DNA of 64,000 nt. Origin: a virus. Positions 6,626 to 23,474 of this stretch are shown here, in pieces. The notes beneath the pieces are model-generated. The model did not search any database, was not told where the DNA came from, and worked only from the letters and a program-made list of their open reading frames with translations. Location of the stretch: positions 160,001-224,000 of IMG/VR virus record IMGVR_UViG_3300045988_154312; one strand, given 5' to 3'. The translations under genes were made by a program, and so were the position numbers. Within the stretch, counting starts at the first letter, position 1. Each line of letters opens with the position of its first letter.

Positions 6626-6629
6626 CATT

Positions 6630-9524: not shown

Positions 9525-9561
9525 GGAGCGGTGAAACTTCGTTTCACCGGTATATTACTCA
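9525..9561 (+). repeat. Conserved 37-nt element, copy 1 (GGAGCGGTG hairpin CACCGGTATATTACTCA)
   Basis: Stem CGGTGAAAC/GTTTCACCG with a TTCG loop, and conserved flanks. Confidence 0.8.
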
Positions 9562-9684
9562 TGCTTGAGTAAGAGTTATTTAAAAAATAAAAAAATATGT
9601 CAGAAAATAAAAAAGACCCCGAAGGGCCGTTTTTATATAATTATTTTTTTAATGTTCAGCTGTCGCTATCAATAATAAATTATT

Positions 9685-9722
9685 GGAAGCGGTGTAACGT
9701 AGTTACACCGGTATATTACTCA
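9685..9722 (+). repeat. Conserved element, copy 2
   Basis: Stem CGGTGTAAC/GTTACACCG, with a compensatory A:T to T:A change relative to copy 1. It has the same GGTATATTACTCA flank. Confidence 0.8.
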
Positions 9723-9846
9723 CTTTAGATGCTTAGTTGTCAAAAAATAAAAAAATATTTTTTATTTAATTATATATATAGCAAACAATAAAAAAAAACA
9801 GCCTTAGATTTTTATATCCAAGACTGTTTTGTGTGTGTAAATTTCA

Positions 9847-9881
9847 GGAGCGGTGAACTGCGTTCACCGGTATATTACTCA
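9847..9881 (+). repeat. Conserved element, copy 3
   Basis: Stem CGGTGAAC/GTTCACCG with a TGC loop, and the same flanks. Confidence 0.8.
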
Positions 9882-9985
9882 TATTAGTATATCATTAATT
9901 AATTTTGTAAAAATAATTAAATATTCATTATTAATGCATAATTGAAAGTACGGATATTTTTAAGTAAAAAAAATACAAAAAATTA

Positions 9986-10011
9986 AAGTCAGATAATATC
10001 TGGCTTTTTTT
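9986..10011 (+). terminator. intrinsic terminator after element copy 3
   Basis: GTCAGAT-AAT-ATCTGGC followed by T7. Similar A-run/stem/T-run hairpins lie at ~9481-9506, ~9608-9635 and ~9790-9832. Confidence 0.55.
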
Positions 10012-10633
10012 AATTTTGGTGTCGCCTGCGGTATATATAGGAAACAATAAAACATAATATACAGAATATGTATATTTATGAATACGAGCTTTTTTCAAAA
10101 GCGTTCTTCGACCATAGCTTACTCCGAAAAGTTTAAATGAAACGTCGTAAGCGTAGTAGTGACGCGGGTTTTTAATAATTTTATGTATAAGATTATTTAG
10201 GGTTAGGAACGATCGATATAAAAATTGCTCCCTTAACAGTTCTTATTCATCTCTTATATATACTATATATATAATATAATAATATTTATTTTTTTAAATA
10301 GTCCGCCGTCTCCTCACGAGCGCCAACACCAGTTATTTATTGCTTTATATACTATATATATAGGTAAAGCTATGGCTTTGTTCGTGCAGAAGATACGGCT
10401 CTTGGACTATAGGTGATACTGACTATACAGTATGCTCCCTTGGGGGGTGGGGGGAGTCAGTAACACTCTCAAGTTAGTTATTTTTATCTAAAAACTAATA
10501 AAAATCGTTTATGGCTATTAAAATGATCATAAGTCCGCAACACTTTAAAATCTCCCTTTAACAGCTAAAAACTAGTATTTTTTAAAATATCAAGTTGCTT
10601 TTATTTGCTATATTTTAGCCTATTTTCATATTA

Positions 10634-10689
10634 GATGTATTTGGTCCGATGTATTTGGTCCGATGTATTTGGTCCGATGTATTTGGTCA
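10634..10689. repeat. 4 x 14-bp perfect tandem direct repeat (GATGTATTTGGTCC), iteron-like
   Basis: Read directly from the sequence. The last copy ends in A instead of C. Confidence 0.95.
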
Positions 10690-11015
10690 CATAATATATT
10701 TAATTAGCGTAGCGTATTACTATATATATCATTAATCTGTTATAGCAACTTTATTAGTACTTAATAGCTGTATATAGTCATATATATAGTTTATTGTTAT
10801 ATTATATATATGGTTTAATATATATTATTAGTATTAAGTTATATTATATATTGCTATACTATGTATATATAATAGTATTAGTATATATGTATTATGTTAT
10901 TATATATTGTATTAAGATATATAATTAAGAGAAACTATTAAATGGAAAGATGCGGGCGATTTTGTATATGGTATTTTATATCAAGTCGTTCACGGATCCG
11001 TATATGGATTTTTAA

Positions 11016-11204
11016 ATGTATTGTATTTTGTCGGAGGAAAATATTATTTTAATAATATCAGCAGTAATTATGTTTTTACTATATAAATTAGGCAATAAAT
11101 TATTTAAAGAGCACTATTATAACAGTCGATTAAAAACTATATATTTAATTTTATGTTTTATAATAGTATGCATATTAATTAGACTATTATATTTATATAT
11201 ATAA
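11016..11204 (+). CDS. small membrane protein
   Basis: 62-aa ORF with two hydrophobic segments. No clear SD. Confidence 0.4.
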   Translation: MYCILSEENIILIISAVIMFLLYKLGNKLFKEHYYNSRLKTIYLILCFIIVCILIRLLYLYI

Positions 11205-11222
11205 GATTAATATTCTTTAGTG

Positions 11223-11240
11223 CGTGCTCCGCACCGAAAT
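11223..11240 (+). promoter_or_regulatory. GC hairpin (TCC loop) + GAAATC motif copy at the head of the small-gene array
   Basis: GTGC-TCC-GCAC-C-GAAATC, about 47 nt upstream of the ATG at 11287. Confidence 0.5.
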
Positions 11241-11286
11241 CTCCCGTAGTCCTTTTTTGTTGTATAGGAGTTAATGAGCGTAGCGA

Positions 11287-11487
11287 ATGAATCAATATTT
11301 AGTCGATCAGATTGTCGACCATAGCGACTGGATACGGTATACGCGTCCAAGGAAGATGTGTTATTCTGACGATATAAGCAAGAAATATGATCTAGATAAT
11401 ATAATCGTAGCAATTAGCGAAAGTTATTATAAATATAGTGCTGAATTATATTTACAATATTATATGTATTTAATAGTAGCAGAATAA
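11287..11487 (+). CDS. Tyr-rich C-terminal motif family, member 1
   Basis: 66 aa. C-terminus KYSAELYLQYYMYLIV. Confidence 0.6.
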   Translation: MNQYLVDQIVDHSDWIRYTRPRKMCYSDDISKKYDLDNIIVAISESYYKYSAELYLQYYMYLIVAE

Positions 11488-11503
11488 ATGGAGGAAACTA
11501 ATA

Positions 11504-11767
11504 ATGAAATATTTAATACAAGAAAAAGTTGTCGGCGATATTAATCTTGAAATCGAAGCTTCCGATATGGTTAAAGCTGTTAAATTAGCTAGAAAATATA
11601 TCGAAGATAATTATAAAGATATTTTTATCGACTACGATTGTTTCCAAGAGAAACAAGTGTTTGGTTGTTCTGATCGAGAATTTAATAAAGACAGTAAAGA
11701 AGGATTTATTATGATTATTCGTGAAGACAAAAAAACAATGAGTCATTTTGAAATAAAAGTTAAATAA
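11504..11767 (+). CDS. hypothetical protein
   Basis: 87 aa. SD GGAGGAA upstream. Confidence 0.7.
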   Translation: MKYLIQEKVVGDINLEIEASDMVKAVKLARKYIEDNYKDIFIDYDCFQEKQVFGCSDREFNKDSKEGFIMIIREDKKTMSHFEIKVK

Positions 11768-11774
11768 AGTCGTT

Positions 11775-11978
11775 ATGAATAAGAATGAATTAATCGATAA
11801 TATTATCGATGCGGCCTGGATAATAAAAACAAAATATCCAAAATATATGCCGTCCCGAAACTTTCATATAGTCGACGTTATTACAAAAATTACTGTATAT
11901 AGTAATGGTAGTCAAGAAATTAACGGTATGATTTATTATAGCTATTATTTATTTTTAGGACATTTAGATTATGAATAA
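11775..11978 (+). CDS. Tyr-rich motif family, member 2
   Basis: 67 aa. C-terminus NGMIYYSYYLFLGHL. Confidence 0.6.
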   Translation: MNKNELIDNIIDAAWIIKTKYPKYMPSRNFHIVDVITKITVYSNGSQEINGMIYYSYYLFLGHLDYE

Positions 11979-12174
11979 ATCAAAGTTTTTCAATGAATTG
12001 GTATATTATAATATCGATAAATGTAAGATAAATAAATATGAAAAATATAATGTCGTTTATAATACTGGTTATAGTATTCTTAGGAATTATATTATTTATC
12101 GTAATGGCGACGAAAAATATAGTGCAAACATATATGTTTATTATTATCTATATTTAAGTTTAGAACATATATAA
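11971..12174 (+). CDS. Tyr-rich motif family, member 3
   Basis: 67 aa. C-terminus KYSANIYVYYYLYLSL. Confidence 0.65.
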   Translation: MNKSKFFNELVYYNIDKCKINKYEKYNVVYNTGYSILRNYIIYRNGDEKYSANIYVYYYLYLSLEHI

Positions 12175-12186
12175 AGGAGGGATTAT

Positions 12187-12414
12187 ATGGAATGTTATAC
12201 TATATCTAAAAGAGAAATATTTATATCAGAAGTCAGAAGAATGACATCTAACGTTATGTGCATTTCATATTTCCCCCATCGGAATATTGAGCCGGCATAC
12301 TTTAATTTAATGGAAGGAATGTCTTATGACGGCGTAAAAAAAGATCCTTTATTCTTATACGATTATTATATATATTTATCTCTTCTAGAATTAGGATATT
12401 ATAATGAACCATAA
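12187..12414 (+). CDS. Tyr-rich motif family, member 4
   Basis: 75 aa. SD AAGGAGGG. C-terminus LYDYYIYLSLLELGY. Confidence 0.7.
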   Translation: MECYTISKREIFISEVRRMTSNVMCISYFPHRNIEPAYFNLMEGMSYDGVKKDPLFLYDYYIYLSLLELGYYNEP

Positions 12415-12622
12415 ATTAAATAATATAGTTAGTAGAGAAAATTCAAAATTGCCTAATAAGATTTATAATAAATATATAGCAAGGCCAGATATTCAAGGCG
12501 ACTTATTAGTATATTATGATCTCGTATATGAATATGTATCTAATGGTATTGCATTATATGATTATTATATATTTTTAAATTATGTAGAATTAGGATACGA
12601 TAATGGACTGCAAAATAAATAA
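12404..12622 (+). CDS. Tyr-rich motif family, member 5
   Basis: 72 aa. C-terminus LYDYYIFLNYVELGY. The N-terminus is related to the members at 12603 and 16668. Confidence 0.65.
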   Translation: MNHKLNNIVSRENSKLPNKIYNKYIARPDIQGDLLVYYDLVYEYVSNGIALYDYYIFLNYVELGYDNGLQNK

Positions 12623-12797
12623 TATAATTTTTAATCATAATTTATTGTTACCTGATGAACTTTATAATAAATATATAATAAAACCAAATTTTTATAGTCG
12701 TATGGTAGTTTATTTCGGTCTTAGATATAAATACATATCTAATTCAAAAGAACTATATGACTATTATATATATTTATCATTAACAGGAACATTATGA
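12603..12797 (+). CDS. Tyr-rich motif family, member 6
   Basis: 64 aa. Contains LPDELYNKYII and KELYDYYIYLSL. Confidence 0.65.
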   Translation: MDCKINNIIFNHNLLLPDELYNKYIIKPNFYSRMVVYFGLRYKYISNSKELYDYYIYLSLTGTL

Positions 12798-13003
12798 AAG
12801 AATATCATTTATCAGAAGTATTAAGAATAACTTATCTTGTATACACTAAATATAATCGTAAGTATGATATAGATCTTAATTTTTTAATGTGTAGAAAATG
12901 AAATAATATTATCGTATATATAAATGAATATAACGATACGTATTCTGGTAACTTATATTATGATTATTATATATATTTAAGTTTAATGGATAACAGTATA
13001 TGA
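12794..13003 (+). pseudogene. Tyr-rich motif family member 7, interrupted by an in-frame TGA
   Basis: The reading frame is colinear with and highly similar to 20103..20312 (MKEYHLSE(V/I)LRI(T/S)YLVYT..YSGNLYYDYYI). TGA at 12899-12901 replaces the TTA (Leu) codon of the paralog. Confidence 0.75.
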
Positions 13004-13197
13004 ATTGGAAAATGAAGTATTATCTAATAAATTTTGAATATGATATAGTGAGCAATTCATTTAGATGTAATACACAAAAATATATACTAGTTAATAATTC
13101 AAAATTTTTATATAATATAAATCTTGATGACGATACAAGGAATAGTGGATTTTATTATTATTACTATATATACTTAATGTTTATTGACAAGAGCTAA
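13000..13197 (+). CDS. Tyr-rich motif family, member 8
   Basis: 65 aa. C-terminus GFYYYYYIYLMF, with mixed TAT and TAC codons. Confidence 0.65.
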   Translation: MNWKMKYYLINFEYDIVSNSFRCNTQKYILVNNSKFLYNINLDDDTRNSGFYYYYYIYLMFIDKS

Positions 13198-13209
13198 TAA
13201 GGAGAATAT

Positions 13210-13572
13210 ATGAAATTTGATCGATGTTTATTAAACGACAACACATATCTTTTCTTAGGCTATGATAAAGGACAAGAAGTATATTGCTTGCGAAATATTA
13301 TATGCATTAGAATTAAAGGAGTTTTAATGGTCGACGCTAGTTTGTTAAGAGTAAGAAAACGCAGCGCCGATAGTTTTGATATTAAGATGACATTACATAT
13401 TAATAGTAATAATGAAGTGTATAGATCATCCTATATATCGTTAAAACATCCTAATAAAAGTATTGTTATTAGAGATGACGACAGTCATCGTAAGGAATAT
13501 ATATTAGCATTAAGAAACTATATTATGGAATATAACAATATAGAACTATTAAGGAGTGAAAATATGTGTTAA
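13210..13572 (+). CDS. hypothetical protein
   Basis: 120 aa. SD TAAGGAGAA. Confidence 0.7.
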   Translation: MKFDRCLLNDNTYLFLGYDKGQEVYCLRNIICIRIKGVLMVDASLLRVRKRSADSFDIKMTLHINSNNEVYRSSYISLKHPNKSIVIRDDDSHRKEYILALRNYIMEYNNIELLRSENMC

Positions 13573-13886
13573 ACTTAATTTCAAAGTATCAAGACGATAT
13601 TAAAAACTTTATTATTAATAAATATAGTCTAGGTAAAAAAAAATATAATTTCGATTATTTTTGTGAATCAGTTTTTAATTTAAAAGAACTTGATCTTTAC
13701 TATAAAAATGCTTGTCATTGTAAAATTATAAAATATAGTTGGCATCATGATAAAGAAGATCCATATCCTAAAAATATTGTTATACAATTTGAAAATAAAG
13801 AAACATTAAAAGATGTATCTCTTGATGATTTATTTTTAACAAAAAGTTCGTTAAAACAATACAATTGGTTTTTTAAAGAGAATTAA
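13566..13886 (+). CDS. hypothetical protein; paralog of 18086..18538
   Basis: GTG start after AAGGAG. It shares C(H/K)(I/V)(I/V)KY(S/D)W...LF LT..SL(K/E)(Q/K)Y(N/G)WFFKE with the 18086 gene. Confidence 0.65.
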   Translation: MLNLISKYQDDIKNFIINKYSLGKKKYNFDYFCESVFNLKELDLYYKNACHCKIIKYSWHHDKEDPYPKNIVIQFENKETLKDVSLDDLFLTKSSLKQYNWFFKEN

Positions 13887-13901
13887 TAAGAAAGAACGCA
13901 C

Positions 13902-14231
13902 ATGAAACATTTATATTGTAAAGAAAAATTCGACAAAGAAAAATATGATCATATATTAAAATTAAAAGTATTAATATCTCAATGTAATTGCGGTAGTATG
14001 CTTCTATATCTTAATAAAATAATGGTTAAATTAGAAGCAATTGAACGCATCGAGTTCGATAAAAATAATGAATATCAATTAACATTATATATTCATTATC
14101 AAAAAAACAATAAAGATCTTTATGAAATCATCGAAGTAAAATTTGAAGATTATGAAGAATTCGAAGAATATAAAGAAATGATCGGCGACATTTTCTGTTA
14201 TACATTTATTAACGAAGAAGCGACTTATTAA
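13902..14231 (+). CDS. hypothetical protein
   Basis: 109-aa ORF in the + strand array. Confidence 0.6.
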   Translation: MKHLYCKEKFDKEKYDHILKLKVLISQCNCGSMLLYLNKIMVKLEAIERIEFDKNNEYQLTLYIHYQKNNKDLYEIIEVKFEDYEEFEEYKEMIGDIFCYTFINEEATY

Positions 14232-14242
14232 GGAGTAAAATT

Positions 14243-14557
14243 ATGGTACTAGAATTCTTAAGCGAAACCGATGCTCTTAATGCTTTTACATTTCATGGAC
14301 AAGATGTATTTAAAAGATTAAGAGAGCATCCATTATTCGTAGAAATTGAAAAAGAATATACACCGATAAAAGGCGAATCTATATTTAGTATCGGCTATGA
14401 TTCTGGACTAGAAAATCGTTATGTTACACGATTTATTAAAATAAAACGATATAAGAATTATGTGCGATTAATTCCAGAAAACGATACATATAATTGGATC
14501 GCAAAAGAATTAATCGATTTATTTATTTCCGATATGAAGTATAATGTTATTGTATAA
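14243..14557 (+). CDS. hypothetical protein
   Basis: 104 aa. SD TAAGGAG. Confidence 0.7.
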   Translation: MVLEFLSETDALNAFTFHGQDVFKRLREHPLFVEIEKEYTPIKGESIFSIGYDSGLENRYVTRFIKIKRYKNYVRLIPENDTYNWIAKELIDLFISDMKYNVIV

Positions 14558-14569
14558 GGAGTAAAAACT

Positions 14570-14779
14570 ATGAAAAATTACGACCATGTTATAAAAAACA
14601 AAATATTACCTGGCGGCAAGCTTATATCTGATTATCAGATTATGACAGGAAACGGCTTGAACGAAGTGGAGTTGGAATATATCGACGAAGTCGGTATTTT
14701 GCCAGTAGCCCCAAAAGATCAATGGATTATCCCGAAAGGCTACGTAGTTGATTTAGATGGCTGCGTTAAAAAAGCATGA
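14570..14779 (+). CDS. hypothetical protein
   Basis: 69 aa. SD TAAGGAG. Confidence 0.7.
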   Translation: MKNYDHVIKNKILPGGKLISDYQIMTGNGLNEVELEYIDEVGILPVAPKDQWIIPKGYVVDLDGCVKKA

Positions 14780-15084
14780 GAGATAAAAGTTACGCAATAG
14801 TATTTTATCACTATGATAAGAATAATAATTTTCATTACGGCGTTATTTCTTGTGAATACGGTTTTATGCGTCAATTATATTCTGCGTATTATACATATAT
14901 GACAGCTAGTATTGACTGTATGATTTCGATAATCGATGCTAACGAATTAAAGTATTTAGAAGAAATGGAACTAGCTTATGACGATCCAAATTATTATGCT
15001 AATGAAATACAAATGGCTATCGAAGAATGTAGCGTAACAGAATTGATTAAAAAATTAAATAAAAGAAGGGAAACTATACTATGA
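14776..15084 (+). CDS. hypothetical protein
   Basis: 102 aa. ATGA overlap with the previous gene. Confidence 0.65.
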   Translation: MRDKSYAIVFYHYDKNNNFHYGVISCEYGFMRQLYSAYYTYMTASIDCMISIIDANELKYLEEMELAYDDPNYYANEIQMAIEECSVTELIKKLNKRRETIL

Positions 15085-15302
15085 AAATATTATTAGCAGG
15101 ATTAATTATTGCTTTATTTACAGTATCAGCTATTGCCGCAAAAATATTAGGTATCGCAACAGTAATTGCTTTTGTATTAGCGTTAATCGGTTTATTCGAT
15201 GTACAAATGAGTACGGCTATTAATTTATTATTATTAACAGTCGGCGCCGGAACTTTTGCAATTATTTTAATGGCTATCGGTAAAGTATTAGCATTTAGAT
15301 AA
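15081..15302 (+). CDS. small membrane protein (2 predicted TM segments)
   Basis: 73 aa and almost entirely hydrophobic. ATGA overlap with the previous gene. Confidence 0.65.
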   Translation: MKILLAGLIIALFTVSAIAAKILGIATVIAFVLALIGLFDVQMSTAINLLLLTVGAGTFAIILMAIGKVLAFR

Positions 15303-15303
15303 T

Positions 15304-15480
15304 ATGAATAAAAAACTATATCATGATATAACAAAACATATATATAGTATAAGTCTTAATAGAGATTTCGATAGATTTTTAATAGTACTTAATCTTAATA
15401 TAGATTTAACTAAAATATATGATAGCGAGATATACTATACTTTATATAAATATTATCTATATATAATGATTAAGATATAA
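15304..15480 (+). CDS. Tyr-rich motif family, member 9 (58 aa, below the ORF-track cutoff)
   Basis: Translated by hand: MNKKLYHDITKH...EIYYTLYKYYLYIMIKI. Confidence 0.5.
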   Translation: MNKKLYHDITKHIYSISLNRDFDRFLIVLNLNIDLTKIYDSEIYYTLYKYYLYIMIKI

Positions 15481-15490
15481 AAGGTTTTGT

Positions 15491-15688
15491 ATGAAAAATA
15501 GATTAGAACAGATCTTAGTAAATATTGAATACAATATGAGAAATGACTATTACTGCTATAGTATTATTAAAAAATATCGTATAAATAATAATATTAGATT
15601 TAATCTTGGCGACGAAGATAGCTTTTTATTTGTCGATGAAAATTATTACTACTATTATATATATTTATGTATATTTAATATATCTTAG
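15491..15688 (+). CDS. Tyr-rich motif family, member 10
   Basis: 65 aa. C-terminus ENYYYYYIYLCIF. Confidence 0.65.
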   Translation: MKNRLEQILVNIEYNMRNDYYCYSIIKKYRINNNIRFNLGDEDSFLFVDENYYYYYIYLCIFNIS

Positions 15689-15715
15689 TATTAATATATA
15701 TTTAACGAGGTGATT

Positions 15716-16330
15716 ATGAAAAGTTCAAACGATACGAGTTTAGATTACTCGTTAAAACATATGCTAAATAAAAACGACTATAAGATTGTGTATTATGGTC
15801 AACATATTATGAAAAATGACGATTGTTATTTGTATGACTATCATACAGAAATAGAGCATAAAAATAGTCCTTATCTTATTAGTATTTTTCGAGAAGGTAA
15901 GGCGTCGCGTTTTTACGAAGATAATAAAGATTATTATTTCGTAAAAATCGTAAATCAATTAAATAACGATCAAATATCTTATCAAAGAATTAGCGAACGT
16001 TCTGAAGACGTAATTAAATATATCGTTAATAAATTATATGTTTTTAAAAATAATCAAGATATAGATTTATTAAAAGAATTTAAAGATCGATATACTAATA
16101 TATTTGTTACAGAAGACAATAAAATATGTTTATTATTTGTTGCCAACAATAAATTCACAAATTTTATTATTAAATATGAAGACAAAGAATATAAATTTAT
16201 TATTTCGTTAGACGGTTGTGATAGAGCCGAAAGAACTGCTAATAATAGAATAGAATTAATTAATCGTATCGAAGAACGATTAATGGAATTTGATGATATT
16301 ACAGAAGGCATTAGGAGCGATATAAAATAA
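15716..16330 (+). CDS. hypothetical protein
   Basis: ATG about 5 nt after the GAGG SD. About 204 aa. Confidence 0.65.
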   Translation: MKSSNDTSLDYSLKHMLNKNDYKIVYYGQHIMKNDDCYLYDYHTEIEHKNSPYLISIFREGKASRFYEDNKDYYFVKIVNQLNNDQISYQRISERSEDVIKYIVNKLYVFKNNQDIDLLKEFKDRYTNIFVTEDNKICLLFVANNKFTNFIIKYEDKEYKFIISLDGCDRAERTANNRIELINRIEERLMEFDDITEGIRSDIK

Positions 16331-16659
16331 TGGCTATTGAATTTAAATTTGATGAAGATATAAAGTTAATATATCAAGATTTTACGTACGATATATTTAT
16401 TGACGATCATTGCACAAAATATGAAATATATGATAGCGGAAATGCCGTAACTGGATATATTCGTTTATTTATATTAAATAAAGAAACTAATTATATTAAA
16501 ATTCTTAACGATATTTTTATCGAAATTGATCGTAATAATAATTTTATCTATATAGATCGAGATAATATTAGAGATGAATTATATCTTGTCCAATTATTAG
16601 AATTGAACGAAATTAAAAAATCTATATATAACTATATCGACAATATATCAGGATATTAA
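16330..16659 (+). CDS. hypothetical protein
   Basis: 109 aa. TAATG overlap with the previous gene. Confidence 0.6.
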   Translation: MAIEFKFDEDIKLIYQDFTYDIFIDDHCTKYEIYDSGNAVTGYIRLFILNKETNYIKILNDIFIEIDRNNNFIYIDRDNIRDELYLVQLLELNEIKKSIYNYIDNISGY

Positions 16660-16667
16660 TATGAAAA

Positions 16668-16874
16668 ATGAACGATAAAATAAGAAAAATAATTTTTAAT
16701 TATAATCTACAAATGCCTTGTGAACTTTATAATAAGTATATAATACGCTCAAATATGTATAATCGTATGATAATTTGTTTTAGTGCTAAACATAATTGTT
16801 CATCTAAAACAAAAGAATTATATGATTATTATATATTTTTAAATTGTATGGATATAATTAGACGAAATTACTAA
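16668..16874 (+). CDS. Tyr-rich motif family, member 11
   Basis: 68 aa. Contains MPCELYNKYII and KELYDYYIFLNCM. Closest to the member at 12603. Confidence 0.65.
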   Translation: MNDKIRKIIFNYNLQMPCELYNKYIIRSNMYNRMIICFSAKHNCSSKTKELYDYYIFLNCMDIIRRNY

Positions 16875-16889
16875 TAAGGAGGCGATCAT

Positions 16890-17222
16890 ATGAACTTCGA
16901 ATATAATAAAGAGAAATACATGTATAAAAATATTAAAGACGAATTACCATTCGATGATGATAGTTATATGTGGCGAAGTGATGAATACGGGCTATATGGC
17001 GTTGAATTTTATCCGGTAGAAGCACCAGGATCAAACGGTAAATTAGCTCAATGCTTCGGAAAGAATTTAGCTTTAGAAAGTTATGCATCTTACGATTCTA
17101 TGTATTTAACAGAGAAATCTGCAATCGACTTCGAAATCGATAAGATTATTTTTAAAAATATCACGAATCAAAAAGAACTTAATTATATGTATGAATTATT
17201 AATGTTAAAACAAAATGAATAG
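16890..17222 (+). CDS. hypothetical protein
   Basis: 110 aa. SD TAAGGAGG. Confidence 0.7.
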   Translation: MNFEYNKEKYMYKNIKDELPFDDDSYMWRSDEYGLYGVEFYPVEAPGSNGKLAQCFGKNLALESYASYDSMYLTEKSAIDFEIDKIIFKNITNQKELNYMYELLMLKQNE

Positions 17223-17418
17223 TCAAAAAATAAAACTTTTAAGAAATACTTGTGAAGGCCATATTTTAAATTTGGATAATCATATATATATAAAATATGC
17301 ATTATCGACAAACATTGAAAAAGATGGACTTGACCGTATTGAATCTGACGATGTTCTTTTTATGGGTCTTAGTTTTATATATAATTATTACATATATTTA
17401 AGTTATGTAGAATTATAA
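17215..17418 (+). CDS. Tyr-rich motif family, member 12
   Basis: 67 aa. C-terminus SFIYNYYIYLSYVEL. Confidence 0.65.
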   Translation: MNSQKIKLLRNTCEGHILNLDNHIYIKYALSTNIEKDGLDRIESDDVLFMGLSFIYNYYIYLSYVEL

Positions 17419-17432
17419 AAAGGATTAATAAT

Positions 17433-17762
17433 ATGTATAATAGTAATTGTTATTTAAATTTTAGGACTGATTTATTTGCCGACACTTTTTTTAACGTAAT
17501 TCAAAAACATCATGACCTAGAAATTCGTTGTGAACAAGCATTATGGGTACCGTTCGATTATTTATTGTATAAGAATACTATTACAATAAAATATAAAAAT
17601 CAATATAACGAAGAACTAACATTAATTCTCAATAAAGATAACGAAATAATAAAAGCAACGACCGTCGTTAAAGAAAAATATCCAGAAGACGGCACCGATT
17701 CGTTTTATTTTATCAATGCATTTCAAGAAGTAATGTTCAACGATTATTTTTTAAAGGATTAA
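17433..17762 (+). CDS. hypothetical protein; weak paralog of 17767..18084
   Basis: 109 aa. Both proteins end in (F/Y)NDYF. Confidence 0.6.
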   Translation: MYNSNCYLNFRTDLFADTFFNVIQKHHDLEIRCEQALWVPFDYLLYKNTITIKYKNQYNEELTLILNKDNEIIKATTVVKEKYPEDGTDSFYFINAFQEVMFNDYFLKD

Positions 17763-17766
17763 TATT

Positions 17767-18084
17767 ATGTATATAAGATTTAAAACAAAAAAATTCGCTA
17801 CTGAATTTATTGATGCAGTAAAAAAGAGCGCAGGAAAATCATTCTATTTTAAAGAATTCGGTACATGGGATTTTTATTATATCAACGAAAAAGAAAACGG
17901 AATCGTAATATCATATCGAAATAGAAAAACAGATTATATTATAATAATAAATATTTTTATTGATAAGTATATGAAAAATCAAATAATTTTTAATACGTAC
18001 GAAGGATATGATTCTATATATACTCCGTTATTTTATAATGAATATAAACAATTATTTTATAACGATTATTTTATCGGTGAATAA
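17767..18084 (+). CDS. hypothetical protein
   Basis: 105 aa. Confidence 0.6.
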   Translation: MYIRFKTKKFATEFIDAVKKSAGKSFYFKEFGTWDFYYINEKENGIVISYRNRKTDYIIIINIFIDKYMKNQIIFNTYEGYDSIYTPLFYNEYKQLFYNDYFIGE

Positions 18085-18085
18085 A

Positions 18086-18538
18086 ATGGATGAACACATA
18101 ATAGAAAATAAAAACTTTTGGGATATTATGTTTAATGAATTAGATAAGACTACCAATGAAGATTGGAAAAAATTTGTCGAAAAGCATGACGAGGAAAGGA
18201 ATAAAAAAATGGATAAACAATTATTTTTAAGATATCGAGATCATTTTGATAATCTTATCAGAGAAAAATATCTTCTCGACAACAAAACATATGACTTCGA
18301 TAACTACGATATCGAAGATTTTGAATTTGAAAAATTAGATTTTTATTATGACGACGGCCGTGAATGTAAAATCGTAAAATACGATTGGGACGGCGAAGGA
18401 AAATGGTCTTATATTAATAACATTACAATTCGTTTTTCTAACGGCGAAATAATGGAGCACGTAAGCGGATATCATCTTTTCTTAACAGTAGAATCATTAG
18501 AAAAATATGGCTGGTTCTTTAAAGAAGACGACTATTAA
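18086..18538 (+). CDS. hypothetical protein; paralog of 13566..13886
   Basis: The ATG at 18086 lies 2 nt after the previous stop. The longer 18008 start overlaps the upstream gene. Confidence 0.65.
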   Translation: MDEHIIENKNFWDIMFNELDKTTNEDWKKFVEKHDEERNKKMDKQLFLRYRDHFDNLIREKYLLDNKTYDFDNYDIEDFEFEKLDFYYDDGRECKIVKYDWDGEGKWSYINNITIRFSNGEIMEHVSGYHLFLTVESLEKYGWFFKEDDY

Positions 18539-18552
18539 TAGTATTTTGTCAA

Positions 18553-18720
18553 ATGAACGATAAACTAATAAGAATGATAAATAAGTTTCATAGGCACCAT
18601 TGTGAATCATATACTGGATATTATCGAACATATAGTATTAGATTTAATGTATCTCCTAACTATGTTAAATATATGCCCGATATATTATTTCATTATTATG
18701 AGTATTATACTTATATATAA
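18553..18720 (+). CDS. Tyr-rich motif family, member 13 (divergent, 55 aa)
   Basis: Translated by hand: MNDKLIRMINKF...ILFHYYEYYTYI. Confidence 0.45.
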   Translation: MNDKLIRMINKFHRHHCESYTGYYRTYSIRFNVSPNYVKYMPDILFHYYEYYTYI

Positions 18721-18731
18721 AGGAGAGATTT

Positions 18732-18944
18732 ATGAGATATAAAGTCGTATTTACTAAATTTAAAGGATTGAATCATTTCGAAGAAACCGAAAGTGCCAGC
18801 GACATAATCAAAGAATTCGTTAAACAAAACAATGCTTTAAAAATAAGAAATATTTTTACCGAAGATAATATTACCTTTGGTAAAGTTCAAGATCTCGATG
18901 GTTTTGATTACGGTATGATTATTATTAAAGAAGTTGCATCATGA
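18732..18944 (+). CDS. hypothetical protein
   Basis: 70 aa. SD AAGGAGAG. Confidence 0.7.
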   Translation: MRYKVVFTKFKGLNHFEETESASDIIKEFVKQNNALKIRNIFTEDNITFGKVQDLDGFDYGMIIIKEVAS

Positions 18945-19126
18945 TTAAAATAATAAATCAAAAGTTAGTCGATGCCGTTTTTAAATACGATGATTATGAG
19001 CCTAACGATCTTGTTCAATATTTAACGTGCGAAAATTTCGAAGAAAAATATTATACATATATGTATACTAATGGTGAATATTATTACTATTTTTATCTAT
19101 CAATAGGATTAATTTGTAATCTATAA
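18941..19126 (+). CDS. Tyr-rich motif family, member 14
   Basis: 61 aa. C-terminus NGEYYYYFYLSIG. Confidence 0.6.
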   Translation: MIKIINQKLVDAVFKYDDYEPNDLVQYLTCENFEEKYYTYMYTNGEYYYYFYLSIGLICNL

Positions 19127-19185
19127 AAGCGAACATATATCCGCTTTTAAGAATTTATGCAGTTTAATAATAATAGCAGGATTTT

Positions 19186-19214
19186 TTGTAAAAAAAAGTA
19201 TTTTATGATATAAT
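19186..19214 (+). promoter_or_regulatory. SigA/sigma70-type promoter
   Basis: TTGTAA, a 17-nt spacer ending in TGA (extended -10), then TATAAT. It lies in a 120-nt gap after a weak hairpin. Confidence 0.6.
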
Positions 19215-19247
19215 AAAAGGTTATGATATACTAATAAGGAGAATAAT

Positions 19248-19478
19248 ATGACTGAAAAAGAAGCAATAATTATCGAAGAAATATATTTAATAGAAAATTA
19301 ATTAAAAGAAAAAACATTAGATTATTTTCTCGATAAATATTATGGCGGTAAAACCTTAGAAAAATTACAACCATTTCAACGAGAAAAAATATTAAAATGG
19401 ATGCAGTCATGTCTCGAAAACGAAGAGATGGCTCTCGATAATATTAGTAGTTGGGCTTTAGAACATGGATATTTCTAA
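19248..19478 (+). pseudogene. hypothetical gene interrupted by an in-frame TAA
   Basis: ATG with SD TAAGGAGAA. A 77-codon frame is broken only by TAA at 19299-19301 (MTEKEAIIIEEIYLIEN*LKEKTLDYF...ALEHGYF). Confidence 0.55.
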
Positions 19479-19481
19479 ATC

Positions 19482-19703
19482 ATGACTGATAAATTTATAG
19501 AAAAAGTATACATTACGTTACAAATTAAAATATCGTTAGATATATTTAATCAGGATCTCGAGCGTTTTTTAATGGAAACAAATGCCAGAAAATTATATCG
19601 TATATATATTTTAACTAATAAAAATCAGAAATATGATGATTACTATGGCTATTATCTATACTTATTACTATGTACCGATACTTTATTGGAAGGAATAATA
19701 TAA
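19482..19703 (+). CDS. Tyr-rich motif family, member 15
   Basis: 73 aa. Contains YDDYYGYYLYLLL. Confidence 0.6.
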   Translation: MTDKFIEKVYITLQIKISLDIFNQDLERFLMETNARKLYRIYILTNKNQKYDDYYGYYLYLLLCTDTLLEGII

Positions 19704-19903
19704 TGTATACTGATAAGCTAGTAAAATATATGTCTTTAAAAAACGATCAGTATTATAAAGACGGTAATACTAAATATCTTTCGCTTAATAATTTAAATAA
19801 TCCTAAAGCGATATTTTCATATAAAGCGTATCAGGATCAAGAAGGAATAGCATATAGTGCCAATATATACTACTGGTATTATCTATGCTTAATATTAATA
19901 TGA
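19703..19903 (+). CDS. Tyr-rich motif family, member 16
   Basis: TAATG overlap start. C-terminus AYSANIYYWYYLCLIL. Confidence 0.6.
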   Translation: MYTDKLVKYMSLKNDQYYKDGNTKYLSLNNLNNPKAIFSYKAYQDQEGIAYSANIYYWYYLCLILI

Positions 19904-20106
19904 ATGGAAAAACAAATGAATTTAAGTTTTCATTAAAATTATTTGATCGTAAAATAAAAAGTAATAGCATATATATAAAATTAACACCAACAATTAATTG
20001 TCGAACAGTATATATTTTATTTATTAAAAATATAAAATATCGTAAATTATATTATTATTATATATATTATACATATTTATCATTATTAGATGTAGACACA
20101 CTATGA
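19900..20106 (+). CDS. Tyr-rich motif family, member 17
   Basis: ATGA overlap start. C-terminus KLYYYYIYYTYLSLL. Confidence 0.6.
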   Translation: MNGKTNEFKFSLKLFDRKIKSNSIYIKLTPTINCRTVYILFIKNIKYRKLYYYYIYYTYLSLLDVDTL

Positions 20107-20312
20107 AAGAATATCATTTATCAGAAATATTAAGGATATCTTATCTTGTATATACTAGATATAATCGTAAGTACGATATAGATCTTAATCTTTTAATATG
20201 TAGAAAATTAAACAATACTGTCGTATATATAAATGAATATAACGACAAATATTCTGGTAACTTATATTATGATTATTATATATTTTTATTGTTGTTAGGT
20301 AATATCGAATGA
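20103..20312 (+). CDS. Tyr-rich motif family, member 18
   Basis: 69 aa. C-terminus KYSGNLYYDYYIFLLL. This is the intact counterpart of the pseudogene at 12794. Confidence 0.7.
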   Translation: MKEYHLSEILRISYLVYTRYNRKYDIDLNLLICRKLNNTVVYINEYNDKYSGNLYYDYYIFLLLLGNIE

Positions 20313-20503
20313 CTAATAAAATGATAAAAGAATTAAATATATATATGAATACAATACAGGATAGTAGGCATTTAAGTATGCGATATATTAGAATACTTGA
20401 TAATATATCGATGCTACCAACATATTTTAAATTTAATCGTGGCCCATGTCAGTATTTATCTTGGTATTTTTTATACTATTTTTATAATCAGGAATTAAAA
20501 TGA
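20309..20503 (+). CDS. Tyr-rich motif family, member 19 (divergent)
   Basis: 64 aa. C-terminus YLSWYFLYYFY. Confidence 0.55.
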   Translation: MTNKMIKELNIYMNTIQDSRHLSMRYIRILDNISMLPTYFKFNRGPCQYLSWYFLYYFYNQELK

Positions 20504-20715
20504 TTGCGAACAATAAACTCGACGGCGTATTAGAATATTTTACAGAAGACATGTGTTATCATGACGAAATAGAGCCTGGTAGCGAACCATTTTTAATGTT
20601 ATATAATACACATGTTATTTTCGATTTAGATGACTGTCCAAATTTATATTATTACTATTATAGTTTTTATATATATGTTATGTTAATTAAGGAAGAAGGT
20701 CTATATGAAATTTAA
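20500..20715 (+). CDS. Tyr-rich motif family, member 20
   Basis: 71 aa. Contains NLYYYYYSFYIYVML. Confidence 0.6.
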   Translation: MIANNKLDGVLEYFTEDMCYHDEIEPGSEPFLMLYNTHVIFDLDDCPNLYYYYYSFYIYVMLIKEEGLYEI

Positions 20716-20917
20716 AGTATTACTATTAACAGTTCTGTTAGGTGTATCCGTATTAAGTATTAATGCATACGATTCCGATAAAAAAGAGTGTAATCAATAT
20801 TTAGACTGTAAATATTATCAAAATGTGAATATTATTAACTTACATTATGAAAATGACGGAAAATCTGTTAAATTGGTACAACCTAATAACAGTTTTCATT
20901 ATAAAAAAACAAAATGA
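20705..20917 (+). CDS. small secreted protein (signal peptide)
   Basis: N-terminus MKFKVLLLTVLLGVSVLSINA, then a polar mature part with 2 Cys. Confidence 0.6.
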   Translation: MKFKVLLLTVLLGVSVLSINAYDSDKKECNQYLDCKYYQNVNIINLHYENDGKSVKLVQPNNSFHYKKTK

Positions 20918-21138
20918 TCAGCAAACAAAATAGAGCTCTGTCGATAACTTATCGAGGTATAAAATTATACGAGAATTTTAATAAATATTCTATTGTTAAT
21001 AATTTAAAAATTCACGACAAATTAACAAATATATGTGTATATAATGACAATGAACGCATGTTTAGTGCTAATATGTATTATAGTTATTATGTTATATTAC
21101 ATTTAATTGACGAAAAATTTAAAAGGAGAAGGACATGA
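20914..21138 (+). CDS. Tyr-rich motif family, member 21
   Basis: 74 aa. Contains MFSANMYYSYYVILHL. Confidence 0.65.
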   Translation: MISKQNRALSITYRGIKLYENFNKYSIVNNLKIHDKLTNICVYNDNERMFSANMYYSYYVILHLIDEKFKRRRT

Positions 21139-21602
21139 ATTGTGAGAAGAATTTGAAAATTAAGTCTTCGGGCTTAACAAAGTTGTTGCGATCTATGAAT
21201 TACAATACGTCTGTCGTCGTTATTAAAACAGATTACGGTTATAAAACAACGTTAATGGCTTTACGTGACGATGGTAATTTTTTACAATTAACAGTATGCT
21301 TAAATTATCATGGTAGCATTGTCGATACTATACATATTCGTATGAATAATACTAAGAAAGATTTAAAATACGAAGATTTTATTTATTTTAAAGCTAACGA
21401 TCCGTATACTGAACGTAAGGACTTATCCGAAGCTATTGCTAATTTAATTATTAATACGAATAGAAAAGTCGATATGTTTTATACTTTTTCATTAAAAAAT
21501 ATTAAAACAGCCTTATTAGACCCAGTATTAATTAGACAATATTTATCTGTGCAACGACAAATGAATAGAATTACTAATACTATTAATGAAGTAAAGATTT
21601 AA
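21135..21602 (+). CDS. hypothetical protein
   Basis: 155 aa. ATGA overlap and SD AAAGGAGAAGG. Confidence 0.7.
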   Translation: MNCEKNLKIKSSGLTKLLRSMNYNTSVVVIKTDYGYKTTLMALRDDGNFLQLTVCLNYHGSIVDTIHIRMNNTKKDLKYEDFIYFKANDPYTERKDLSEAIANLIINTNRKVDMFYTFSLKNIKTALLDPVLIRQYLSVQRQMNRITNTINEVKI

Positions 21603-21604
21603 AA

Positions 21605-21865
21605 ATGGTTTATAATATTATTAAATATAGCAGACATAATAACGATACATATGTATATATACAAAAAATGCCTGGCATTTATAATCGAAATCTAAGTTTA
21701 TATTTTGCATATATATATAGTATATTCGACTTTAAGTTTCGATATAGTATTGTTAAAGATATAGATTTTCAAGCATATGTTAATTTTAGATTATTAGATG
21801 AAAGTATTAATCCTAAAAATGTCGACATCTTAAATATATTAAAGAGTAAAAATTATGAAATATAA
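21605..21865 (+). CDS. hypothetical protein
   Basis: 86 aa. Confidence 0.55.
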   Translation: MVYNIIKYSRHNNDTYVYIQKMPGIYNRNLSLYFAYIYSIFDFKFRYSIVKDIDFQAYVNFRLLDESINPKNVDILNILKSKNYEI

Positions 21866-22139
21866 AATATTATTAAGAAAGATGCCAGTCGATGAATATG
21901 CCTATGAATTATGTTACGATGCTTTTAATAGTAATTTTAATAGTTCTTTATATATAACATATTTGTTGTTTAATATGTATCCAAAAAGTAGTGTATATTT
22001 AGTTAGCAATACAAAATTAGAGGCATTAGTGTCAATACCTACCCCTGATTATATATTTATGGAAGAGTTAGAAAAACATAATTTATTAAGTATTATAGAA
22101 AGAAATAAAGATGAATCTATTAAGCGAGACAGAATATAA
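21855..22139 (+). CDS. hypothetical protein
   Basis: 94 aa. Confidence 0.55.
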   Translation: MKYKILLRKMPVDEYAYELCYDAFNSNFNSSLYITYLLFNMYPKSSVYLVSNTKLEALVSIPTPDYIFMEELEKHNLLSIIERNKDESIKRDRI

Positions 22140-22476
22140 ATTAAAAGAGCTTGGCCTCACATTAGACGATATTCAGTTTGTGATGTGTACGGAATCTGAA
22201 TACGGTAGCGACTTTATTTTTATGAACAAAGATACGTTTATTGGAAAGGCTACCCTCGTTAATTACGATAATGGATATGGATCTCAAGAGATTAAAAATA
22301 ACTTAACAATTTATACTAAGACTCATATCATTTATCGATTTGAATACGACGGAGCAGAATGCTGGAAATATATTCCGACAATTACTGGCCTTGACGAATT
22401 CTTACAGGATGAAAAAAACTGGAAAGAATTTAAGCTTGAATCAAAGGATTATTATGAAAAACAAATTCCGTTCTAG
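22111..22476 (+). CDS. hypothetical protein
   Basis: 121 aa. Confidence 0.6.
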   Translation: MNLLSETEYKLKELGLTLDDIQFVMCTESEYGSDFIFMNKDTFIGKATLVNYDNGYGSQEIKNNLTIYTKTHIIYRFEYDGAECWKYIPTITGLDEFLQDEKNWKEFKLESKDYYEKQIPF

Positions 22477-22667
22477 AATTAATAAATGGATTAAAACTAA
22501 AATCTCATCAGTATTGCTTCCATATTATACATGGATAGTATTTGAAAAGCAGGAAAAAATTGGTGAAAAAAATTTAAATTATACCACATTTATTTCTTTT
22601 TCTTAGAAAAATATTTATAATTATAATAAAGAAGAGAAATAATTGTGGATTTTTTTATAGGAAAAAT

Positions 22668-22970
22668 ATGAGTGAAACATATATAATTTCGTCATATGCA
22701 AAAAATGATAGGGATCGATTATGTCGGTTTAAAACATATAAAGCTGATAATATGTTCGTTCGAGCATACCATCTAGCATATTATGTATATATTAGTTATG
22801 CGTATGAGAAATATCGTATTTGTATATATCCAGAAGGAACGATAGGCAATCGATACGATATAACGTTCGAGCAGATTGCTGAAATGTACGATATTGTTCA
22901 TTGTATTAAAAATAAAGAGTATAGCAAAAAAATGAATTCTAAAAAACGTAAGTGGTTGAAAATATTTTAG
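22668..22970 (+). CDS. hypothetical protein
   Basis: 100 aa. Internal aromatic stretch AYHLAYYVYISYAY. Confidence 0.6.
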   Translation: MSETYIISSYAKNDRDRLCRFKTYKADNMFVRAYHLAYYVYISYAYEKYRICIYPEGTIGNRYDITFEQIAEMYDIVHCIKNKEYSKKMNSKKRKWLKIF

Positions 22971-22980
22971 GAGGTATTTA

Positions 22981-23283
22981 ATGGGTTATACGTTAAAACA
23001 TAGTATTGAAAAAACTGCCAAAATTATTAATAATCTTGATATTAATCAGTTTAATGGCGATCGTCAAAACTATTATATTGAGTCAGTAGAGTTTGTTAAC
23101 GAAGGTATATTCCCATCAATTCGTTTTATTATTAGAAATGACCAGACTGGTGCAATTGATAAACGTTGCGGTATGTTGCGCAAAATTCCGAATAGTAACG
23201 AAGTCGAATATCGTGACGGAACAGTTAAAATGTATGACGGTATCATCTGGACATTTTTAAAAGAAGCAGGTATAACATTATGA
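22981..23283 (+). CDS. hypothetical protein
   Basis: 100 aa. SD TAGGAGG. Confidence 0.7.
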   Translation: MGYTLKHSIEKTAKIINNLDINQFNGDRQNYYIESVEFVNEGIFPSIRFIIRNDQTGAIDKRCGMLRKIPNSNEVEYRDGTVKMYDGIIWTFLKEAGITL

Positions 23284-23474
23284 ATCATAAAAATTATTAT
23301 GATATCTGTGATTCAGCTCAAAAAATTTATGATAATAATCCTGCATTTTTTCCAGGAAATAATATTAAGAATGATGCAAAAACTAAAATGAGAGAATTCA
23401 ATGTTATTGGTGACGAATTTAATGCTTTATTCTACTATGAATATATTATGTATTTAATCGGAAAAAATTTATAA
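23280..23474 (+). CDS. Tyr-rich motif family, member 22
   Basis: 64 aa. C-terminus FNALFYYEYIMYLIG. Confidence 0.6.
   Translation: MNHKNYYDICDSAQKIYDNNPAFFPGNNIKNDAKTKMREFNVIGDEFNALFYYEYIMYLIGKNL

Follow-up and report, generated by a model that had tools for sequence, protein, structure and literature searches.

A multicopy family of small proteins with a selected tyrosine-rich motif in a hypervariable segment of large phage genomes

Most of the uncharacterised tools that phages use for host manipulation and counter-defence reside in variable blocks of small early genes, usually in the form of unrelated ORFans that are hard to study. In the Bacillus phage SPO1, such a host-takeover module (gp37-gp60) is located in the terminal region, and gene accordions are exemplified by K3L of poxviruses. 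ClpX adaptors of the SspB type bind their substrate with one part and dock with a short conserved peptide at the C-terminus. In T4-type phages, hyperplastic regions are shuffled by means of repeated PeSL cassettes (Arbiol et al., 2010, PMC2839356; Comeau et al., 2014, PMC4122927). The T-even internal proteins IPI, IPII, and IPIII and their variants share a capsid-targeting sequence, and IPI counters GmrSD in T4 (PMC3012670). Amplification of a counter-defence gene has been described for the T4 tifA region (PMC9391042). Here, we describe a family of small proteins with a shared tyrosine-rich segment near the C-terminus, which is encoded as a dense array in a DNA stretch of 64,000 nt (the window; positions 160,001 to 224,000 of the IMG/VR record IMGVR_UViG_3300045988_154312). 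The source is a large, virulent-type phage of ~230 kb, and all genes of the window are located on the plus strand. Between positions 11,287 and 23,474, 21 intact open reading frames (ORFs) of 55-77 aa and one interrupted copy were identified, all on this strand. This family is real, selected and clade-restricted, and shows a modular pattern of conservation.

The shared motif, Φ-Y-x-Y-Y-Φ-(Y/F)-L, is located 5-14 residues from the C-terminus. It is often preceded by (K/A/M)(Y/F)S(A/G)N and is followed by tails that show no consensus. Seven of its eight positions are hydrophobic or aromatic; ten different residues were found at the “x” position, and the Φ positions swap conservatively via different codons. 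Tyrosine accounts for 15% of the residues in the family compared to 7% in neighboring genes. A strict regular expression of the motif matched 17 of the 45 ORFs in the 11-24 kb region, which is ~37-fold above the expectation of 0.46 obtained by shuffling the residues within each ORF (maximum of 4 matches in 2000 shuffles), and matched none on the minus strand and none of the 85 ORFs between 24 and 64 kb. A profile hidden Markov model (HMM) of the 21 intact members assigned them scores of 25.9-62 bits and recovered the C-terminal half of the interrupted copy, which had been left out of training, with 30.4 bits (E 2e-8), while the best score among 866 other six-frame ORFs of the 64-kb window was 10.4 bits. 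An earlier note on this DNA, made from the letters alone, had listed 22 ORFs of this kind, and all of them were recovered on the plus strand together with every peptide that it quoted as an example.

The conservation of the motif was found to reflect selection on the protein. Nei-Gojobori distances were calculated for 111 orthologous pairs, with the array taken from six lineages. For the ten motif codons, the proportions of nonsynonymous (pN) and synonymous (pS) differences were 0.053 and 0.470 (ω ~0.07), compared to 0.171 and 0.340 (ω ~0.43) for the N-terminal part and 0.135 and 0.451 (ω ~0.22) for 125 pairs of non-family neighbor genes. Synonymous sites of the motif vary at least as freely as those elsewhere and its amino acids barely change, which contradicts a nucleotide-level element; the idea of a DNA signal was rejected on this ground. 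The N-terminal part of ~45 residues evolves about twice as fast as the neighboring genes. The earlier note had argued for selection on the protein from the mixture of TAT and TAC codons, for example in the genes at 13000 and 15491; both codons are indeed present there, and the share of TAC among tyrosine codons is at background level (14.4% in the motif, 15.0% in the background). Among the paralogs of the window, motif codons are biased toward NTA, as isoleucine is encoded by ATA in 15 of 16 cases and leucine by TTA or CTA in 29 of 29. We attribute this bias to shared ancestry or to recombination at the motif; a DNA signal is disfavored, as synonymous sites of the motif vary freely between orthologs.

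That the family is an unrecognised one, as had been suspected, is supported by every library searched. None of the 21 members matched a family in Pfam-A, PHROGs v4, NCBIfam 20, PADLOC 2.0, or the PDB sequences: the best E-values (0.012-0.04) were isolated ones, each for one member and another family, no match was obtained with PADLOC, and the best PDB profile reached E 1.7. A tblastn search of 50,697 deposited phage records found nothing. An exhaustive profile search of 1.84 billion representative proteins returned ten matches, nine of which are small proteins of this phage clade, the tenth being an unrelated repeat protein that matches FYYQYYIS only. In a word-indexed search of 5.8 billion proteins, all 32 matches were unannotated proteins of 57-94 aa, each orthologous to one particular member of the window. 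The array recurs in identical form on a 229,885-bp contig from the human oral metagenome PRJEB6997, and related contigs span 160-236 kb. Deposited phages showed no similarity to the window at the DNA level, with best protein identities of just 35-42%, and a near-DNA search of the array against GenBank phages gave nothing, the sole match elsewhere in the window being a stretch of ~80 nt that belongs to a group I intron. On the basis of these searches, the family appears to be previously undescribed and restricted to one clade of human-oral jumbo phages.

Within this clade, the family is present in all 24 related loci with 9-22 copies each, amounting to 312 matches and 271 unique sequences. At least 28 N-terminal types were distinguished by clustering on the N-termini alone, as whole-protein single-linkage clustering had merged subtypes via the shared motif. 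For each of the 19482-, 20500-, 20914-, and 23280-types, some 20 or more sequences are available. Between lineages, the region from 11.3 to 20.9 kb is alignable only as single-gene blocks, and the region from 20.9 to 24.5 kb is collinear with 78-85% identity. Because of this block-wise alignment and the variable copy number, the family is placed in a hypervariable, mosaic segment. The dense multigene family described in the earlier note is thereby borne out and shown to turn over fast.

Beyond the motif, several features are common to the members. In an alignment of 56 sequences, a central Asn and two Tyr are nearly invariant; most members start with MNxK, and a central (K/R)(Y/F)Φ..N block is visible in the full alignment. 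When leave-one-out HMMs were built with the motif removed, 10 of 21 held-out N-termini ranked first or second among 867 ORFs, with individual significance restricted to the 12404/12603/16668 subfamily (members are named here by their first nucleotide). Comparison of N-terminal-only alignments of 17 subtypes by hhalign, with 34 gene families from the same loci as controls, yielded higher scores for family-family than for family-control pairs (Mann-Whitney p 1.6e-8). The similarity thus extends in part beyond the tyrosine run; a lack of any alignment beyond this run had been named in the earlier note as an outcome that would refute its observation. The N-terminal halves are highly divergent, as had been claimed, and their weak similarity is still significant collectively, individually for only a few subtypes. 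Most paralogs are 12-30% identical, and only two pairs, 12404/12603 and 12794/20103, are recent. Judged by these profiles, common descent with extreme divergence is likely for some of the N-terminal subtypes; the others may instead be unrelated modules that were captured by a shared C-terminal cassette.

The two recent pairs offer a view of how copies arise. In the tandem pair 12404/12603, the unit at 12355-12577 matches 12554-12776; it begins 9 nt ahead of one motif anchor and ends 14 nt past the following one. In its tail (…VELGYDNG…), 12404 accordingly takes after the upstream gene 12187 (…LELGYYNEP) and not its sister 12603 (SLTGTL), which is precisely what an unequal crossover between the motifs of neighboring genes would be expected to produce. 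Similarly, 12794 and 20103 are homologous from the motif and tail of their respective upstream genes up to a point just past their own motif. In a related locus, the chimeric gene L015_2522 (L015:2522-2887) carries a family N-terminus that continues, from within the motif, into the C-terminal domain of the 13566/18086-type paralog family. Motif tracts of 38 nt are 89% identical between otherwise unrelated members. Synteny breakpoints between lineages fall at gene-sized blocks, where “motif” and “gene end” are not separable. These arrangements point to copy-number changes by unequal crossing-over at motif-coding DNA. In the mechanism proposed, unequal homologous recombination between motif-coding tracts of 25-40 nt in neighboring genes would duplicate, delete, and recombine motif-to-motif units.

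With regard to the timing of expression, a host-type extended -10 promoter (TTGTAA-N14-TGATATAAT) was identified inside the array at 19186-19214 on the plus strand. It is the one site in 37 kb that matches the strict extended -10 pattern, belongs to the σ70/σA-type consensus class and is found in 22 of the 24 related loci. Its sequence varies solely at non-consensus positions (TTGNNA-N14-TGNTATAAT), and it persists where the downstream gene differs. A generic σ70 scan was uninformative in this AT-rich DNA and showed no enrichment (163 sites compared to 160 expected), and no terminators were found between the family genes. The array is preceded by a strong terminator (7,366-7,412) and a gene-poor control region of ~4 kb. 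The conserved promoter supports early transcription by the host RNA polymerase for the distal half of the array at least, and the assignment to an “early region” in the earlier note gains support to this extent.

Structure prediction, which had been suggested as a check, yielded helical models of low confidence. The AlphaFold2 models of the 19482-type and 20500-type proteins agree in an N-terminal helix (approximately residues 4-20) and a C-terminal helix that contains the motif. The longest uncharged run in the members measures 5-15 aa, the maximal 19-residue Kyte-Doolittle mean is at most 1.28 and the isoelectric points range from 4.1 to 9.7. A membrane anchor of the tail-anchored or single-pass kind was rejected, as there is no hydrophobic segment of about 18 residues or more, and the members are predicted to be small, soluble cytoplasmic proteins. 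With hydrophobic residues on almost all of its faces, the motif is probably not fully buried within a 65-residue monomer; we infer that the aromatic segment is buried in an oligomer or a partner and not exposed on the monomer surface.

The account that explains the locus best as a whole, and that we consider moderately probable, is that of an early host-interaction set with a variable N-terminus and a shared aromatic segment, which grows by recombination at the motif. The aromatic helix would then form a shared fold core or a surface for oligomerisation or docking, the variable N-terminal part would provide different binding specificities and the whole set would represent early-expressed host-interaction proteins involved in host takeover or counter-defence. 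Such a takeover or anti-defence role is suggested by the genomic context. In an extended form of this account, which we regard as rather unlikely, the array constitutes a modular effector system: the invariant tyrosine-rich helix plugs at least 28 interchangeable N-terminal “warheads” into one machine, and the DNA encoding the helix serves as a recombination handle too, by which warheads are exchanged, duplicated, and captured. The proteins may in this case be adaptors that feed host defence or housekeeping proteins to the phage ClpXP, or subunits of one mixed oligomer.

Several observations weigh against the favored account. With the motif removed, an hhalign probability of at least 50 was reached in just 4 of 136 subtype pairs, and most N-terminal types are not demonstrably homologous. 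No homolog was found in the libraries, no structural neighbor in PDB and BFVD, and no informative fusion; a Foldseek search with a model of pLDDT 66.7 (predicted local distance difference test) gave no match at E ≤0.001, with best E-values of 7.4 (PDB) and 2.8 (BFVD), an absence that is weak evidence at this model quality. The low confidence of the models (pLDDT 67 and 64, predicted template modelling score 0.40) makes the helix assignment and the oligomer interpretation weak. Repeat boundaries near motifs are partly expected in any case, since the motif is the best-conserved part of the genes, and the promoter at 19,186-19,214 serves only the distal half of the array. The family had been called diversifying; in the sense of positive selection this was not demonstrated, as ω of the N-terminal part, although twice that of the neighbors, remains below 1. 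Finally, an attempt to derive the host from a TnpB element of the window was abandoned and identified no host: its best bacterial matches are at most 52% identical, taxonomically scattered, and mostly from Bacillota.

It is possible, although doubtful, that the members do not form one family by descent, and that recombination at the motif repeatedly fused unrelated N-terminal modules to a single mobile C-terminal cassette. The small number of subtype pairs retained without the motif speaks for such module capture, as do the single subfamily with individual leave-one-out significance, the chimera in which a different paralog family is joined inside the motif and the duplication units that are offset from gene boundaries and bounded by motifs. 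It is opposed by N-terminal similarity that collectively exceeds the controls and by the length, MNxK start, and central block with its nearly invariant Asn that the members have in common; moreover, profiles of ~40 residues have little power, so that non-detection of N-terminal homology is weak evidence. A nucleotide-level element (promoter, recombination site or RNA structure) or mere AT-rich low complexity, with the ORFs being incidental, has been largely refuted and is extremely improbable. The low GC content, the AT-only motif DNA TATTATATATATTTA, the NTA bias of the paralogs, and the apparent use of motif tracts as recombination substrates would suit this explanation. However, orthologous motifs change at synonymous and not at nonsynonymous sites, the “x” and Φ positions vary as a protein motif would, the motif is absent from other frames, from the opposite strand and from the remaining 40 kb of AT-rich sequence, open frames are maintained in 24 loci, and σ70-like sites are as frequent as expected.

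Three further explanations concern the role of the motif in the protein. It is unlikely that the motif acts as a docking tag for one machine, with the proteins being adaptors or decoys whose variable N-termini bind targets and whose aromatic helix docks on a hub, which may be the phage ClpXP or the host RNA polymerase, a chaperone, or a membrane surface. The combination of a variable recognition part with an invariant short segment under strong constraint would fit this idea, and the motif is hydrophobic on almost all faces, as is expected of a partner-buried segment. In addition, the phage encodes adjacent ClpP and ClpX, and this ClpX keeps its N-terminal C4 zinc domain, which in the studied ClpX proteins binds adaptors. 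There is, however, no sequence similarity to SspB (Pfam, NCBIfam) or other known adaptors, and the motif lies 5-14 residues from the end instead of at the extreme C-terminus, is aromatic in contrast to the basic-hydrophobic XB peptide and is followed by non-consensus tails. Quite unlikely in our view is that the members are peripheral membrane or aggregation-prone (amyloid-like) peptides, whose Tyr/Ile/Leu segment sits at the membrane interface or self-assembles and which may serve superinfection exclusion, lysis timing, or the formation of a scaffold or condensate. Although the segment is extremely rich in aromatic and β-branched residues and the array includes a protein with two likely transmembrane segments (15081-15302) and a signal-peptide protein (20705-20917), no member has a hydrophobic run of more than 15 aa, the Kyte-Doolittle means stay at or below 1.3 and the need for at least 28 N-terminal types would remain unexplained. 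Still less credible is a sorting signal resembling the T-even capsid-targeting sequence, which would bring the proteins into the virion, to enter the cell along with the DNA as ready-made counter-defence factors. In both cases, a single short conserved segment is carried by diverse small proteins encoded at a polymorphic locus; yet here the segment is found near the C-terminus and not at the N-terminus, the array lies behind a host-type promoter and away from recognisable virion genes, no protease-site pattern is seen on either side of the motif, and 22 packaged species would be unusual.

The individual members, all on the plus strand, are distributed over the array as follows. The first array gene is located at 11287-11487 (66 aa, ...KYSAELYLQYYMYLIVAE) and has orthologs in the related loci L005, L011, and L111. 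It is followed by 11775-11978 (67 aa, ...INGMIYYSYYLFL...), 11971-12174 (67 aa, ...KYSANIYVYYYLYL...), and 12187-12414 (75 aa, ...LYDYYIYLSLLELGYYNEP; orthologs P0037 and P0041). The gene at 12404-12622 (72 aa), a tandem duplicate of 12603 with a C-terminal tail like that of 12187, and its sister at 12603-12797 (64 aa; P0001) belong, together with 16668-16874 (68 aa), to the LP.ELYNKYII subtype, a subfamily that had been recognised correctly in the earlier note. The copy at 12794-13003, described there as a pseudogene, is indeed interrupted, although by no frameshift: a single in-frame TGA at 12899-12901 replaces the TTA of its intact and near-identical paralog 20103, as anticipated, and the frame then continues through a perfect motif to 13003. 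Further members are found at 13000-13197 (65 aa, ...FYYYYYIYLMF...; P0039), 15304-15480 (58 aa, ...LYKYYLYIMIKI), 15491-15688 (65 aa, ...NYYYYYIYLCIF...; P0036), and 17215-17418 (67 aa, ...FIYNYYIYLSYVEL; P0035). The shortest one, at 18553-18720 (55 aa, ...HYYEYYTYI), carries the motif at its extreme C-terminus, and 18941-19126 (61 aa, ...EYYYYFYLSIGLICNL) is the last member upstream of the promoter.

Downstream of the promoter, the gene at 19482-19703 (73 aa, ...DDYYGYYLYLLL...) represents the type with most database orthologs. The next two genes probably start at 19703 (and not 19670) and at 19900 (and not 19885), giving members at 19703-19903 (66 aa, ...AYSANIYYWYYLCLILI; P0008) and 19900-20106 (68 aa, ...LYYYYIYYTYLSL..., with a likely ATGA-coupled start). 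The intact paralog of 12794 at 20103-20312 (69 aa, ...KYSGNLYYDYYIFL...) precedes 20309-20503 (64 aa, ...YLSWYFLYYFYNQELK), which has the most divergent motif and an HMM score of 27.1 bits, and 20500-20715 (71 aa, ...LYYYYYSFYIYVML...). The remaining members are located at 20914-21138 (74 aa, ...MFSANMYYSYYVIL...) and at 23280-23474 (64 aa, ...FNALFYYEYIMYLIGKNL), the latter being an outlying copy that belongs to the conserved collinear block and is the ortholog with the highest conservation. The spacing of family genes ranges from -20 to +16 nt. Translational coupling by ATGA or TAATG overlaps, as proposed before, was confirmed for seven genes and one gene, respectively, and others overlap by 8-20 nt.

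Several other small genes are embedded in the array. The gene at 19248-19478 (+), which encodes a protein of 76 aa (MTEKEAIIIEEIYLIEN.LKEK...), is kept in all relatives and contains an in-frame TAA at codon 18 in this strain, which may be a strain-specific nonsense mutation or an assembly error; together with the TGA of 12794, the array therefore holds two in-frame stops. Other small paralog families are present as well, namely the 13566-13886/18086-18538 types with the C-terminal domain ...KYxW...FLTxxSLxxYxWFFKE, and the pair 17433-17762/17767-18084. The non-family gene at 15081-15302 (+) encodes a very hydrophobic protein of 73 aa with probably two transmembrane segments, and the one at 20705-20917 (+) encodes a conserved protein of 70 aa (ω ~0.10) with a signal-peptide-like N-terminus, MKFKVLLLTVLLGVSVLSINA. 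No Pfam domain was detected in any of 15 neighboring array proteins.

Upstream of the array, the window shows a sharp compositional boundary. The first 8 kb (1-8000) have 40-43% GC and short ORFs, compared to 23-27% GC on the side that contains the array (8000-30000); the first ORF (11-1690) carries a YpsA/SLOG domain at its end. Stop-codon recoding was considered as a cause of the short ORFs and higher GC content of 1-8 kb and of the two in-frame stops, and was rejected: read-through of TAG, TGA, or TAA did not make the ORFs of 1-8 kb meaningfully longer, and the ATGA overlaps between genes indicate that TGA is a working stop. The gene-poor control region (7366-11290) extends from the strong terminator (7366-7412) to the array, and its position is kept in the relatives. 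It contains GC-rich AGCGAGCGAAGCGAGCGGAG repeats (7695-8171), three tandem hairpins (7806-7962), three tandem units of ~160 nt with a GGTGAAAC/GTTTCACC hairpin (9520-9913), terminator-like hairpins on the minus strand (9489-9830), and a fourfold 14-nt repeat, GATGTATTTGGTCC (10634-10688). In the same gene-poor stretch, 9289-9459 (+) shows a full-length match to Rfam RF03053 (OTKONC RNA) with 138.5 bits (E 4e-23), slightly below the gathering score of 141.4. Two non-coding blocks (~10925-10990 and ~11228-11290) are 100% identical in four lineages within surroundings of ~65% identity; both are located directly upstream of the first family gene, and the second, GTGCTCCGCACCGAAATCTCCCGTAGTCCTTTTTT, is followed by the ribosome-binding site.

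The recognisable genes of the window code for a thymidylate synthase, a nucleotide kinase, the adjacent ClpP and ClpX, RecA/UvsX, a UvrD-type helicase, and HNH endonucleases, and a TnpB element is also present. ClpP (44012-44581, +; Pfam CLP_protease, E 3e-62) adjoins ClpX (44581-45876, +), whose N-terminal C4 zinc-binding domain occupies residues 1-45 and reads CSFCGK...CQDC. The RecA/UvsX gene is split by a group I intron at 51002-51206 (+), with the Walker-A exon located upstream of the intron and the ORF resuming at 51258; the intron matches RF00028 with 66.2 bits (gathering score 50) and was not picked up by the whole-window Rfam run at the gathering threshold. About 80 nt of it show 85-89% identity to unannotated sites in Staphylococcus, Listeria, Enterococcus, Bacillus (SPbeta-like), and Lactobacillus phages. 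Within 56076-58407 (+), an AAA ATPase ORF breaks off inside the ATPase domain, of which the C-terminus of the ORF covers only Pfam AAA positions 4-71 of 131. An HNH endonuclease gene comes next, and this ATPase gene may be a further case of interruption by a mobile element. The position of the TnpB (IS605 OrfB) element differs by lineage (37494-38594, +, in the window; L013:15596-16849; L015:15784-16869). In L013, L098, and L112 at least, a strong extended -10 promoter was found just upstream of a TnpB-type element (an apparent one in the case of L098 and L112, which are unannotated).

With up to 22 genes per genome on one framework, the family provides a common handle for cloning, pull-downs, and structural work, and forms a natural library of at least 28 N-terminal variants with many orthologs for evolutionary tests. 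Proof that the aromatic helix docks or assembles the members in common would illustrate the way in which phages arrange small effectors in modules, and proof of crossover at the motif DNA would make it the in-gene equivalent of the intergenic cassettes that shuffle genes in T4-type phages. Should the modular effector system exist, one short sequence would serve both protein function and the evolvability of the locus. Should neither docking nor crossover apply, a well-defined new protein family would still be gained for phage annotation.

Among described systems, the T4-type hyperplastic regions are similar in that small, mostly ORFan and non-essential early genes are located between conserved core blocks, vary in content among close relatives and are gained, lost, or replaced via recombination between short repeats that flank the genes (PMC2839356; PMC4122927). 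The T4-type repeat, however, is an intergenic cassette of promoter and stem-loop between unrelated genes, whereas the genes of the array abut or overlap and the repeat is part of the gene and itself a selected protein motif. In the array, no repeats of an intergenic early promoter and terminator stem-loop were found at the narrow gene spacing, and one strong promoter lies inside it; two duplication units and one chimera are bounded by Tyr-motif DNA, with the high conservation of the motif biasing where homology ends. The T-even internal proteins likewise derive from a polymorphic locus and are diverse small proteins that share only one short conserved peptide (PMC3012670). Their capsid-targeting sequence is N-terminal and is cut off by the prohead protease, and the proteins are packaged, whereas the motif described here is near the C-terminus, behind a host-type promoter and in far higher copy number; instead of a conserved N-terminal targeting peptide of ~10 aa, the N-termini share only a loose MNxK. 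As in gene accordions, unequal recombination appears to change copy number in a viral accessory region that differs between close relatives (PMC9391042). Accordions consist of recent, near-identical repeats of one gene, whereas most copies of the array are ancient and nearly unalignable outside the motif: the copy number varies between 9 and 22, yet recent pairs are limited to two.

In the SPO1 module as in the array, small early genes are densely packed behind promoters of the host type, close to a non-coding control region; the SPO1 genes are not mutual paralogs and lack a shared motif, and no sequence similarity to the array was found. A purely hypothetical link exists to SspB-type adaptors, which also combine a binding part with a short conserved segment, the phage encoding ClpP and a zinc-domain ClpX. 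Unlike SspB, the members show no similarity in sequence or predicted fold, and their motif is aromatic and not extreme C-terminal. Nor does the array follow the pattern of precursors of ribosomally synthesised and post-translationally modified peptides, in which modifying enzymes are adjacent and a conserved leader precedes a variable core: none of the 15 neighbors carries a Pfam domain, conservation is found in a hydrophobic C-terminal part, and purifying selection acts on the variable one. The closest analogues are consequently conceptual rather than homologous. The family is new, yet falls within a known kind of phage genome feature; what sets it apart is that the repeated recombination handle lies within the gene and is, at the same time, the most strongly selected part of the protein.

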